Below, piece by piece: positions 49,301-52,300 of a DNA stretch of 64,000 nt. The stretch is from a virus (taxonomy: Duplodnaviria > Heunggongvirae > Uroviricota > Caudoviricetes). The first letter of the stretch is position 1. Every line of letters begins with the position of its first letter. The stretch is from IMG/VR virus record IMGVR_UViG_2690316121_000006; one strand, given 5' to 3'. Made by a program: the position numbers.

Positions 49301-52300
49301 GACATAAAAAACAATATTTATTAGAGCAATTTTGCAATAAGTAAACGCCACACAGACCACAAATAACCTAAGTTAAAATAACGAAAATCAGAGCAAATCA
49401 TTGGTGATGACGTGGCAAGTATTGCAACAAAAGACAGCATTTGTTCGGGGCACGGAGGATTCCCATCCAGGCCTCCCGTAGAGAGCGAACCACTACTTAA
49501 AGTCAACGGAGTCGAAGTGTTAGTTGATGGTAAGCAATATGCACAGCATACCGATGGGAACAGCACGCACGGCGGGCAAGCTATATCAACCAGGGCATGG
49601 TTTACCGTCAACGGGAAAGGGATCGTATGCGTTGGTGATCCTGTTTCATGCGGCTCTACCGTTGCAGCCGGAGACGGCCTGGTTCAGGTAAGTTAGGAGA
49701 TATCATGCTGGAAAAAGACTACCAGTTATCCGCATATAAAAAATTGGCCGCCGCCGGTGGGATGAAAACACCTGGTGCCATAACATCGGCACGAAACAGT
49801 GCTAACACAGCAAAACTGCTTGCAGAAGAATTGACCGGATTAATTCTGGATACAATTGTCTATCCCGACACTATTACCAGCTATGTTTCAACGATCAGAA
49901 CAACCGCAACCGGTTTAACGAATATTGGAGGGCTGGCAACTCAGCACGCGGACCTGTTGGCTGGTTATGCTGATCTGTCAATGCTCCTTCAACTCGATAT
50001 TGGTTGGGATGTTTACTGTCGTGCTAATGAGCGAGAAGTTTCAGAACTGCCGATCTCTATTGCCATTGGTGATGTGACTATTACTAAATCGCTTGAGGAC
50101 GCTGTAAACGCGCTTAATACATCAAGTTTAGTCGCTGCTATGGGGGAGATTAACCAGACCCTTAACACTGGCTCAGGAAGCTCGTCAGGCTCTGGTTCAG
50201 GCGGCGGCACTGCCACTCCCCCACCAGCACTAACAGAAGAGCAAATTGAATCTCTGAAAGTAGCAACTGAACAGTTTGGGGTTGTTTTCAACCAGACAAC
50301 AGCACCCACAACTGCGTTACAACAGCAGTATGAACGAGCGAATGAAAGCGCCAACGTAGCCATAACTGCTTATAACCATGCTATCGGTACCGCGCTTGCG
50401 GAAGCATCAGCAAATAAGGCCAGCACAGCCAGCGCAATCGCCGCTTTGGTTCCTGATTCTGTTCTTGATGAATTAAACAAAGCGGCACAGTAACAAAGGA
50501 CTTCATTGATAATTTTTCTTCAGGAGGAAGACATGTCATTCTTTTCTACATTAAAAACAGCTTTGTCTTTGAAGGAGAAACTTGCTGCTACTGGTGTTCT
50601 TGTTCTGATTTGCGCACTTGTTGGTGCTGGGTTTGCGTGGGAACGTCATCAGCTAAAGCAAGCCATGGAGAAAATTGGCAGTCTTGATCAGGCTGTTAAG
50701 GAACGTGATAAGTCAATAATGGATCTTAACCAGACCATTGAGACGATGAACAAAGCAGAGCAACATTTTCACAGCCAGGAAGTGAAAAATGAATCAGAAC
50801 AAGCCAAGTATGCTGACAGGCAAATGGAACGAAAAGCTGAAGTTCAGAAACAACTTGTTGCGGCGGGTAATGTTCGCCAGCGTATTCCTGCTGACACTCA
50901 GCGGTTGCTCCGGGAGTCGATCAGCGAATTTAACGCCGACGCCGACAAAGGTTAACCACCCTGCCCCAAAAAGTGCATTTATGTGCAGGATGCCAGAGTT
51001 TAGCAGTGAATATTTTGATGATCTGCCAGCGTATATCCTCGATACAGAAACGATGCTGATGGGGATTAACAGGAAGAATCGCAACGTTAATGATTACAAC
51101 CGCGCTATCAGCGGTAACTAAAAGGGATTTTTATGTCTGATAAAGTAACAGTAAAGCAAACTATCAACAAAGCGACTTCAATCTACAAAATTGAGCACAT
51201 CACTGTTGGCAAGCCAGGATCTGAACAATACCGTCATGCTTTCGAGCTTGCCGATCAGCTTGGTTTAAAACACCCGGATTGCATCGAGCATGTATTTCCG
51301 ACCTATGCTGATGAGCAATGTACTCATGTTCTTACCGAAGAGGATTTTTTCAGCACTGAAGAACGAGAAGGCGTTGATCGCTGCATTGGTGTGATTTGTT
51401 CTTCGGTAAGTGATGAGTTATTCCCTAATGTGCCTGAATATGGTGGTATTGGATACCAATTCCTGTACGAAGGCGATGAGCTTAAATGTTATGAACATGG
51501 TCTTCTTATCGAAAGCGTAGAATAATACCCTTCCTTCCAACCGGCTATGTTGGCCGGTTTATTCAACTTATCCACAGCATAGATCCAATAAACAGATCCC
51601 AAAGAGAACCTAGGAAGATCCAAAGAAGATCCCGGATCGCTGTAAGCCGCGCCGTTCATGGCCTGAAACGGGATCAACATTGACTATACGCGATTTTATG
51701 TTGACTGTGTGCGATTTTATGTTGACTGCACGCGATTTATTGTTGACTATACGCGACAGAAACGTTGACTGTACGCGATTTTAGAGCCTGAATATTCACA
51801 GCTGTTGATAACAGTCATCTAAATTAACGCCAGGCCGCGCCACACATGGAGAAACCACGATGCCGGAAGAAAGTAAAGGCTTCCTTAGCGTTGAAGAAGT
51901 TGCAGGAAATACAGGAGAAATCCACAGCCTGAAGCCCAATAACAACAGCACTATACAACCCATAGCTTTGTTGCGCTTAGGTGTGTTTGTGCCAACCTTA
52001 AAATCTACCAATGTGGCGCTACGTCGCGGATCGTCAGTTACAACAAACACAACGAACGCAACCGAAGAACTATCAAGCCTCAAAATTGTTGAGCAGGAAG
52101 GCTATGAGGGAATTGAAATTCATGGTCCACGCCTGGATATGGATACTGATTTTAAGGTGTGGGTGGGCATAACCTCCGCGTTGTTTGACTATGCTCCTGA
52201 TGATGACGGCATAATCACCCTGCCATTCTCCGAGTTTGCCGATCGATGCGGCTATCCACGTAAGCGCCTTTCAAAGGCGTTCCGTAAAAGTATTGATGAC

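Follow-up and report, generated by a model that had tools for sequence, protein, structure and literature searches.

The genes upfC, upfB, ppfA and mlp of a P1-type phage-plasmid, which are real and have already been described, are best explained, together with upfA, as a cluster holding two co-inherited gene pairs that differ in function, an explanation in which we place high confidence. A sequence-only reading of this DNA had treated the locus as a lysis or envelope-acting module; it is not one lysis module, since upfC and upfB would supply parts of the virion used in entry whereas ppfA and mlp would act at exit. The window (the whole 64,000-nucleotide stretch of DNA that was analyzed) is that of a P1-like phage-plasmid, with 97–99.6% DNA identity to SJ46, P1, P7 and RCS47, in whose annotations the names UpfC, UpfB, PpfA, mlp, Rz and Rz1 occur. 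The four reading frames that had been claimed between positions 49412 and 51121 are all present, and all five genes lie on the same strand, with upfA last in the cluster (Table 1). Among PLSDB plasmids, the exact 1,710 bp recurs at 100% identity in at least 8, and 652 records contain a match to this stretch.

Table 1. Features of the upfC–upfA locus, in window positions
Feature	Coordinates	Strand	Description
Divergent intergenic region	49243..49411	.	Separates upfC from uhr, which is on the minus strand; the P1 annotation puts the C1 operator and a leftward promoter, Pdmt, here
upfC	49412..49696	+	GTG start, 94 aa; PAAR-type spike-tip protein
upfB	49705..50493	+	ATG start, AGGAG Shine-Dalgarno; 262 aa, all-helical
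ppfA	50533..50955	+	140 aa, AGGAGG Shine-Dalgarno; i-spanin candidate
mlp	50789..51121	+	110 aa; lipobox LTLSG-C, Cys40; o-spanin candidate
upfA	51133..51525	+	130 aa, function unassigned; phrog_1453

The reading frames proved to be conserved. Across a comparison set of 43 related loci, in which UpfB identity falls to ~20%, upfB directly follows upfC in all 43, and the overlapped spanin pair comes next after them in 38. Sequences, conservation and synteny were established here and the structure of UpfC is taken from the literature; a spanin function of PpfA and Mlp and the role of UpfB are what we infer. The P1 annotation, the published spanin table and recent cryo-EM studies of P1 already contain these genes with their names and proposed roles, and little of this is new. 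The analysis does correct several annotation errors (an over-long upfB start, truncated 46-aa ‘Rz1’ calls, swapped i- and o-spanin labels, and ‘embedded’ for ‘overlapped’), and it gives a comparative account of why the P1 spanin genes adjoin a plasmid origin.

UpfC had been described as a PAAR-like protein rich in Gly, His and Cys. It is of the PAAR type and rich in Gly (14 of 94 residues), but contains only three His and only three Cys. The presence of the fold is settled by structure: a PDB sequence search returned chain 9vyi_A (‘UpfC’) at 100% identity, and this identical sequence is a solved P1 spike-tip structure (PMC12810830), from which the conical fold referred to here is taken. The same search matched UpfC to T4 gp5.4 chains (5iv5 and 4ku0, at ~1e-7) and to PAAR protein chain 4jiv_D (4e-4). 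Its match to phrog_281 reached 2.5e-30, and the Pfam PAAR_motif model (PF05488) scored 26.0 bits, 1 bit under its 27-bit gathering threshold. An HHpred match for UpfC has been published, as has a viable upfC deletion that plaques normally (PMC9024508). In cryo-EM maps, monomeric UpfC sits on the gp5 trimer, resembling T4 gp5/gp5.4 (PMC12810830). The protein is the counterpart of T4 gp5.4, one cone of PAAR fold that gives the trimeric gp5 tail spike its sharp tip. An alignment with 24 distinct homologues shows three of its residues (H14, H46 and C80) to be invariant; H53 recurs in 20 of them and is displaced by one alignment column in the remaining four. We take these four residues to be a putative metal site of three His and one Cys near the apex, as in PAAR structures.

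The 262-residue protein said to follow upfC is likewise present, together with its Gly/Ser linker (GSGSSSGSGSGGG), and its start codon lies 8 nt past the upfC stop. The start given in the P1 RefSeq record (equivalent to window position 49648, for a product of 281 aa) is over-extended; phrog_1559 (3.9e-138) aligns from residue 20 of that longer form. UpfB comprises an N-terminal domain (residues ~1–157) and a C-terminal domain (~178–262), separated by a variable Gly/Ser/Thr linker that differs in length between homologues. Its AlphaFold2 model (pLDDT 82.8) contains 11 helices and a disordered linker, of which residues 159–169 fall below pLDDT 50. A slippage-prone repeat in the linker was considered and rejected, since the DNA encoding it contains no tandem repeat and its codon use is mixed. 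A PDB sequence search with UpfB gave low-complexity or chance matches only. Foldseek found no match in the PDB at E ≤ 0.001, and what it did return were long helical bundles of a generic kind (BAR domains and ClyA-type toxins, with TM-scores ≤0.31), and BFVD yielded weak matches (TM ~0.3) to uncharacterized or DUF7217 proteins of Salmonella, Pectobacterium and Serratia phages; these structural matches support no conclusion on the fold. The UpfB family (phrog_1559) has 88 representative clusters, nearly all of ~250–265 aa, and was found in P1-like genomes only.

In the literature UpfB is the ‘tripod’, a set of three trimers fixed to the tip formed by UpfC, an assignment made by fitting an AlphaFold3 model into medium-resolution density (PMC12810830). 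It is not among the virion proteins named in the text of the LC-MS/MS study. Since upfC and upfB are adjacent in every sampled P1-like locus, the comparison provides independent support for the medium-resolution tripod assignment. UpfB is pictured, following the published cryo-EM, as an all-helical, two-domain protein whose three trimers would attach to the UpfC cone, and the two proteins together may form the distal end of a membrane-piercing device used in entry. Relative to P1, UpfB carries 20 amino acid changes within residues 124–217, as well as V245I, and none within residues 1–123. Positive selection on this central segment was rejected, because pN/pS is 0.34 with a pS of 0.27; the same values indicate a recombination patch. 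The protein is lineage-specific and all-helical and its central segment is mosaic, traits that lie behind a bolder suggestion considered below.

UpfA looks like variable cargo that lies outside the conserved block. It has no Pfam match and no match among the 43 related loci, and many truncated variants are found. The homologues at hand are either near-identical or frameshifted. A terminator-like hairpin (51537–51553) lies 3' of the gene.

The prediction that PpfA and Mlp are spanins reportedly dates from 2007, and judged by their sequences the two proteins are P1's candidate two-component spanin. The sequence-only reading had recognized an Rz/Rz1-like pair here, and it was right to do so: every sequence feature of an i-spanin and an o-spanin is present, both proteins match PHROGs of Rz-like spanins, and the Kongari 2018 spanin table lists them as the overlapped pair (‘ovl’) of P1, in a ‘P1’ family of their own. 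A further study also calls ppfA and mlp the P1 spanin genes (PMC9025707). In the window, mlp and ppfA are the only convincing pairing of a lipoprotein ORF with a type II membrane protein, and no other spanin-like pair was found there.

The topology signals of PpfA are those of a type II inner-membrane protein: one transmembrane segment, at the N terminus. K8, K14 and K16 precede a hydrophobic segment at residues ~17–36 (mean Kyte-Doolittle value of 2.4 in the scan interval starting at residue 17), and the Kongari 2018 table divides the protein into 36 N-terminal and 104 periplasmic residues. Its AlphaFold2 model (mean pLDDT 71) consists of a helix at residues 13–110, a break at 111–119 and a C-terminal helix at 120–137. 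It thus has the N-terminal transmembrane segment of an i-spanin and a helical periplasmic domain with a break. Of the ‘type-II membrane coiled-coil protein’ first described, the type II topology and the long helix stand, but the coiled coil is represented by weak matches to coiled-coil-type Pfam models only. PpfA matches phrog_89 (‘Rz-like spanin’) at 1.2e-25, as well as phrog_739 and phrog_214, and contains a conserved RxP(A/D)D..R..R motif; in a PDB sequence search it gave only low-complexity or chance matches.

Mlp has the attributes of an o-spanin, being a small lipoprotein with a signal peptide, the LTLSGC lipobox that had been claimed for it (lipid-accepting residue Cys40), and no Asp at the +2 position, which is Ser; a lipobox was scored in 34 of the 38 homologous loci, and in these 34 the residue is S or N. 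The mature protein has 71 residues, of which 6 are Pro, and one further Cys (C66), which lies in an FMC(R/Q/T)MP motif and is present in every homologue. A spanin pair is expected to have one or more periplasmic cysteines, for disulfide bonds between the partners; C66 provides one, and PpfA contributes none (it has no periplasmic cysteines). Mlp matches phrog_30284 (2.6e-77) and phrog_456 (2.8e-5), both ‘Rz-like spanin’. The Kongari 2018 table enters it as ‘ovl’, with one periplasmic Cys and a 39-aa signal marked ‘too long’. A signal peptide of 39 aa is unusually long, and this length, like the scarcity of periplasmic cysteines, counts against the spanin reading.

The lipoprotein gene had been described as a classic embedded one, which it is not. 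It lies in the +1 frame relative to ppfA, with which it shares 167 nt, and because it extends 166 nt past the ppfA stop it belongs to the overlapped class. Every one of the 38 loci with the pair shows that same class and frame. Gene callers usually miss mlp, and in several GenBank records it is reduced to a fragment of 46 aa, as might be expected if the frame were open by chance within ppfA and past its stop and were no gene at all. We give that reading next to no credence: a +1-frame ORF of 99–146 aa is kept in 38 of the 43 loci despite low protein identity, the homologues retain the signal peptide, the lipobox Cys, the second Cys and a C-terminal N.RN...N.YN motif, and mlp has its own Shine-Dalgarno sequence (AGGA). 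Since both frames, the lipobox Cys and the second Cys are kept at ~20–60% protein identity, the arrangement is not due to chance, and at the level of sequence the chance-frame reading is refuted by conservation. Stronger constraint on the dual-coding ppfA/mlp segment was also considered and was not borne out; that segment exceeds the ppfA-only part in conservation by only a little and is about equal to the mlp-only part, a difference so slight as to be uninformative.

As a spanin, PpfA would be anchored in the inner membrane by its N-terminal transmembrane helix, with its long helix reaching into the periplasm. Mlp would be lipidated at Cys40, and its Ser at +2 would presumably direct it to the outer membrane. 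If the pair works like lambda Rz/Rz1 and P2 LysB/LysC, the two proteins may bind one another via their C-terminal parts so as to span the periplasm and, after the endolysin Lyz has cleared the peptidoglycan, may bring about fusion of the inner membrane with the outer.

In a published CRISPRi study, plaquing was not reduced when upfC, upfB, ppfA, mlp and upfA were knocked down (PMC10695390). Since this knock-down and the upfC deletion both leave plaquing normal, none of the five genes is essential on plates. Such results leave the functions proposed for upfC, upfB, ppfA and mlp standing, and do not show an absence of function. The lack of a plaque phenotype is also compatible with a different role for PpfA and Mlp, as envelope proteins of the prophage (acting, for instance, in superinfection exclusion or in modification of the lysogen's envelope) that would be made from weak sigma-70 promoters inside upfB and not late in infection. 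The P1 annotation predicts two such promoters there (P1ppfA and P2ppfA), the genes adjoin plasmid-maintenance functions, and the length of the Mlp signal peptide is in keeping with such a role. Furthermore, a search of positions 48900–51200 for the Lpa-type late-promoter motif (with a pattern whose starting point was the annotated LPlyz and which a match just upstream of gene 23 helped to refine) found none, even at 2 mismatches. However, our own sigma-70 scan, which found no promoter upstream of upfC, did not recover P1ppfA or P2ppfA either. The spanin PHROG matches, and the retention of the full two-component layout across distant P1-like phages, also argue against a prophage function, as does the location of the pair in most relatives, where it lies among late structural genes upstream of gene 23 with no replicon in between. 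With no other spanin candidate in the window, we consider a prophage envelope role quite unlikely, and prefer to regard PpfA and Mlp as spanins.

A place beside holin and endolysin genes, which is typical of spanin genes but not obligatory, is absent for ppfA–mlp. In a comparison that covered lyz, lydD and lydE, no lyz or lyd homologue was found near the pair, and the lyz-lydD-lydE part of the one P1 stretch compared (17.5–24 kb) has no match in the window. The location reported earlier, between the dmt operon and oriR, is correct: the divergent uhr-hrdC-dmt operon lies on one side of the locus, and an iteron origin and repA on the other. This site had been called unusual for its distance from holin and endolysin genes; the separation is real, but it is a recognized peculiarity of P1 (PMC9025707) and is explained by the relatives. 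The capsid gene 23 lies within ~0.3–3 kb downstream in 30 of the 43 loci, and in the P1 subgroup an oriR-repA-parAB module is placed between the block and gene 23. Because the block is conserved and gene 23 comes next in those 30 loci, the position beside oriR reflects the site of the replicon in the P1 subgroup.

The joint presence of the four genes in 38 of the 43 loci, while their flanks change, might suggest that all of them build one envelope-crossing machine, with the spanin-like pair helping the tip and tripod, for instance in entry fusion or in periplasmic assembly of the tail tip. Spanin genes follow upfC–upfB in most clades, but in one clade (the remaining five loci) an Amidase_3 endolysin and a holin occupy the spanin position, which points to a linkage with lysis genes generally and not to a specific partnership of UpfB with spanins. 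The published P1 cryo-EM maps list neither PpfA nor Mlp as virion proteins, and the topology signals of both put them in the host envelope whereas tails assemble in the cytoplasm. We consider a single machine very unlikely indeed, and retain the view of two separate pairs. It is conceivable, although we lean towards doubting it, that the spike-tip/tripod pair and lysis genes are an ancient linked late-gene block of the P1-like lineage, that the ‘orphan’ spanin genes of P1 are the remnant of a lysis cassette from which the holin and endolysin genes moved elsewhere and into which a plasmid replicon was inserted, and, more boldly, that UpfB is a released membrane-active factor. If the bolder version were true, UpfB would open the inner membrane for DNA entry, compensating for the lysozyme domain missing from P1 gp5.

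The comparison with the P1 upfA–C region that the sequence-only reading had proposed bore out the correspondence: gene content and gene order are unchanged in the P1 reference (NC_005856, P1_gp066-gp062), and so are the neighbors (uhr-hrdC-dmt and oriR/repA). UpfC is identical in the two, PpfA and Mlp differ by one residue each (I45M and W23L, respectively), UpfA has two differences, and UpfB is diverged in its central segment (124–217). The replicon past position 51653 differs from the P1 R replicon: its iterons are different, its RepA has 294 aa and it contains an additional ORF with a T5orf172 domain.

UpfC is like T4 gp5.4 and the PAAR-repeat proteins of type VI secretion systems (PF05488; 4ku0, 5iv5 and 4jiv) in being a small monomeric cone on a trimeric beta-helical spike, and its conserved His and Cys positions are consistent with a metal site near the apex. 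Laboratory plaquing requires neither UpfC nor T4 gp5.4 (PMC9024508, PMC12407873). The gp5 spike of P1 is without the lysozyme domain that T4 gp5 has, and the P1 tip carries the UpfB tripod, whereas T4 has none (PMC12810830).

The PpfA/Mlp pair resembles lambda Rz/Rz1 in protein topologies, inferred mechanism and use of the +1 frame. Unlike mlp, which is not wholly within ppfA, the lambda Rz1 gene lies entirely within Rz (embedded), and the lambda genes form part of an S-R-Rz lysis cassette whereas the P1 pair is not so placed. Lambda Rz has two periplasmic Cys and Rz1 one, with intermolecular disulfides, compared to none in PpfA and one in Mlp, and mature Rz1 has 40 residues with 10 Pro against the 71 residues and 6 Pro of Mlp. 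The prototype overlapped spanin, P2 LysB/LysC, has no detectable sequence family link to PpfA/Mlp; its function has been tested, whereas the P1 pair is known as a candidate and lies apart from holin and endolysin genes. The P2 proteins are nevertheless of the same kinds, a type II inner-membrane helical protein and a small outer-membrane lipoprotein, and their genes have the same layout as ppfA and mlp: in the +1 frame, the o-spanin gene begins within the 3' portion of its partner and runs past the stop of the i-spanin gene (PMC6139136).

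The four open reading frames picked out by the sequence-only reading (window positions 49412–51121) were all found at their places, and comparison with the P1 upf region identified them as upfC, upfB, ppfA and mlp (P1_gp066, gp065, gp064 and gp063, respectively); the genes, and the finding overall, are already known. The surrounding 2.6 kb shares 97–99.6% identity with Salmonella phage SJ46 and with three Escherichia phages (P1, P7 and RCS47). At least eight PLSDB plasmids contain the exact 1,710 bp (100% identity), and a match is found in 652 PLSDB plasmid records. P1-like content elsewhere in the window comprises the portal gene, cre, c1, pacAB, lpa, phd-doc, ban, dmt, repA, parAB and genes 23, 22 and 21. 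In the P1 annotation, upfA, oriR and repA lie downstream, and upstream, on the opposite strand, is the uhr-hrdC-dmt operon, which C1 controls.

Genes of the region and their start features
Gene	Position	Strand	Product	Start features
upfC	49412–49696	+	94 aa; spike tip	GTG start
upfB	from 49705	+	262 aa; 'tripod'	ATG, 8 nt past upfC stop; AGGAG Shine-Dalgarno sequence
ppfA	50533–50955	+	140 aa; candidate i-spanin	AGGAGG Shine-Dalgarno sequence
mlp	50789–51121	+	110 aa; candidate o-spanin	AGGA Shine-Dalgarno sequence; +1 frame of ppfA
upfA	51133–51525			

Of window 1–24000, only 58% is covered by SJ46, the closest phage record; differences lie in the cargo and the variable res/mod-dar-type region. 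The window's first 500 nt have no match to the P1 pro-lydE-lydD-lyz region, which in P1 comes after the portal gene. A 171-aa outer-membrane beta-barrel protein of the Ail/Lom family, with a signal peptide, is encoded at 63033–63548 on the minus strand (Pfam OMP_b-brl, 4e-25; Ail_Lom, 1e-22).

The suggestion that the first gene encodes a small PAAR-like protein was confirmed. PDB chain 9vyi_A, itself named UpfC, has exactly the UpfC sequence of the window (100% identity). UpfC also matches T4 gp5.4 (5iv5, 4ku0; ∼1e-7), the PAAR-repeat protein 4jiv_D (4e-4) and phrog_281 (2.5e-30); with Pfam PAAR_motif it scores 26 bits, below the cut-off of 27. Residues H14, H46 and C80 are invariant across 24 distinct homologues, 20 of which also have H53. 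In the P1 cryo-EM structure the spike tip is a UpfC monomer that caps the gp5 trimer (PMC12810830; bioRxiv 10.1101/2025.07.21.665459), the same assignment as in earlier HHpred work, in which upfC deletion gave normal plaques (PMC9024508). A genome-wide CRISPRi study found upfC, upfB, ppfA, mlp and upfA all non-essential for plaquing (PMC10695390).

The length originally proposed for UpfB agrees with the start in the table. The P1 RefSeq start (281 aa, with a 49-nt overlap with upfC) is 57 nt too early (window 49648–49704), since all homologues, like the PHROG profile, start from the methionine further downstream. An AlphaFold2 monomer is all-helical (mean pLDDT 82.8), with two confidently predicted helical domains joined by the linker GSGSSSGSGSGGG (pLDDT <50), which varies in length among homologues and whose DNA contains no tandem repeat. 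No significant fold neighbour of UpfB was found in PDB or BFVD. UpfB has been described as a novel 'tripod' of three trimers anchored on the tip, a model in which an AlphaFold3 prediction was fitted into medium-resolution density (PMC12810830).

UpfC is identical in the window and P1, PpfA differs by I45M, Mlp by W23L (synonymous in the ppfA frame) and UpfA by two changes. UpfB has 20 amino acid changes at residues 124–217, plus V245I, and none in its first 123 residues. At the nucleotide level, 40 of 300 positions differ from P1 across codons 121–220 (window 50065–50364), a segment for which 19 amino acid changes were counted, whereas upfB matches P1 exactly over its first 360 nt and neighbouring genes differ by 0–2 residues. 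Positive selection on this segment was considered and set aside, given its pS of 0.27 and pN/pS of 0.34; from these values it looks like a recombination patch with another allele. Homology to P1 also breaks off at 51653 and resumes at 53913. The replicon in between differs from the P1 R replicon. It contains five TTGACTrTAyGCGA iterons (51675–51781), a 294-aa Rep3-type RepA and further iterons in both orientations after repA (52742–53007); between these and parA is an additional ORF of 269 aa (53037–53846) that carries a T5orf172 domain.

A word-index search with UpfB gave matches solely in P1-like contigs of ∼90 kb, and a full HMM search gave 88 representative clusters; GenBank phages with UpfB are P1-like only (P1, P7, D6, SJ46, RCS47 and JK004). 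We compared 43 related loci, with UpfB identities to the window from ∼60% down to ∼20%. In all 43, upfC lies directly upstream of upfB, commonly with a 1-nt stop/start overlap. In 38, an N-terminally anchored helical protein follows, with a lipoprotein ORF that begins inside the 3' part of its gene; in every case this ORF is in the +1 frame and continues past that gene's stop. In the candidate o-spanins two cysteines, one of them in the lipobox, and a C-terminal N.RN...N.YN motif are conserved, and the candidate i-spanins share an RxP(A/D)D..R..R motif. Because this frame and these residues are conserved, mlp is not a chance ORF. No overlapped spanin pair was seen at the five most distant loci (L041–L045), where upfC-upfB precede genes for a small membrane protein (113 aa), then for an Amidase_3 endolysin (phrog_435) and a holin (phrog_3427), and capsid gene 23 comes next (e.g. 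L042, 5807–7283). Synteny across the 43 loci therefore defines a conserved unit in which the genes for the spike tip and tripod are linked to lysis genes.

Gene 23 and sheath gene 22 lie within ∼0.3–3 kb downstream in 30 of the 43 loci. In the P1 subgroup, including the window, upfA and the oriR-repA-parAB module intervene before gene 23, and another clade has an inverted repA in the slot of that module. The separate position of the proposed module, between the dmt operon and oriR, is real; what was called unusual about it is documented for P1 and can be explained, the proximity to oriR following from the location of the replicon in one subgroup. upfA looks like variable cargo beside the origin. 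UpfA had no match in any of the 43 loci, two of which (L005 and L008) have a Phage_gp49_66-family gene in its slot, and many database copies are truncated or frameshifted. Sigma-70 and late-promoter motif scans recognised no promoter upstream of upfC. Shortly before gene 23 (56434) lies AAGTGACTTTCAATAAAAT (56385–56403), a late-promoter-like motif whose −22 box and −10 element are similar to those of LPlyz, a late promoter annotated in P1. Comparable motifs are present at 37209 (+) and 2250 (−), and none near upfC.

The original interpretation was largely right, but merged two functional units, upfC-upfB (entry) and ppfA-mlp (exit). UpfC and UpfB would have a role in membrane penetration, their structure and placement coming from the literature and their genetic coupling from the synteny described here.

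For the exit pair, the topology signals and architecture of spanins are present, bearing out the proposed spanin-type features, with function predicted. PpfA matches Rz-like spanin PHROGs (phrog_89, 1.2e-25) and has an N-terminal transmembrane segment and two predicted helices separated by a break, one at 13–110 and one at the C-terminus, with no cysteines in its periplasmic part. Mlp (phrog_30284 and phrog_456) has a lipobox, LTLSG|C, with serine at +2, and a mature part of 71 aa with six prolines and one further cysteine; its signal peptide (window 50789–50908) has 39 aa in the P1 subgroup versus ∼26 aa, a standard length, in most of the distant relatives. The long N-terminal region is kept in related loci L003, L005, L006 and L008. 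W23L creates a TTG at 50855 (TGG in P1) that could be an alternative start. Several GenBank records (e.g. MH422554) annotate 'Rz1' as a 46-aa ORF (window 50981–51121), an in-frame C-terminal mlp fragment that lacks signal peptide and lipobox; phrog_15803 'lipoprotein' is built from such fragments.

Kongari et al. 2018 list exactly this P1 pair in their supplementary table (class 'ovl', family 'P1'), counting no periplasmic cysteine for the i-spanin and one for the o-spanin, and noting 'Too long signal sequence' for the latter. Bednarek et al. 2022 (PMC9025707), citing Summer et al. 2007, assigned ppfA and mlp as the P1 spanin genes from predicted features and described them as partially overlapping and lying in an unlinked operon; the i- and o-spanin labels are swapped in that text. 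By analogy with lambda Rz/Rz1 and P2 LysB/LysC, PpfA and Mlp would form a periplasm-spanning complex and, once Lyz has acted, fuse the inner membrane with the outer. Contrary to what had been proposed, the lipoprotein gene is not embedded: mlp shares 167 nt with ppfA and extends 166 nt past its stop, an arrangement of the overlapped class (definitions in PMC6139136), as in P2 LysB/LysC and unlike the embedded Rz/Rz1 genes of lambda.
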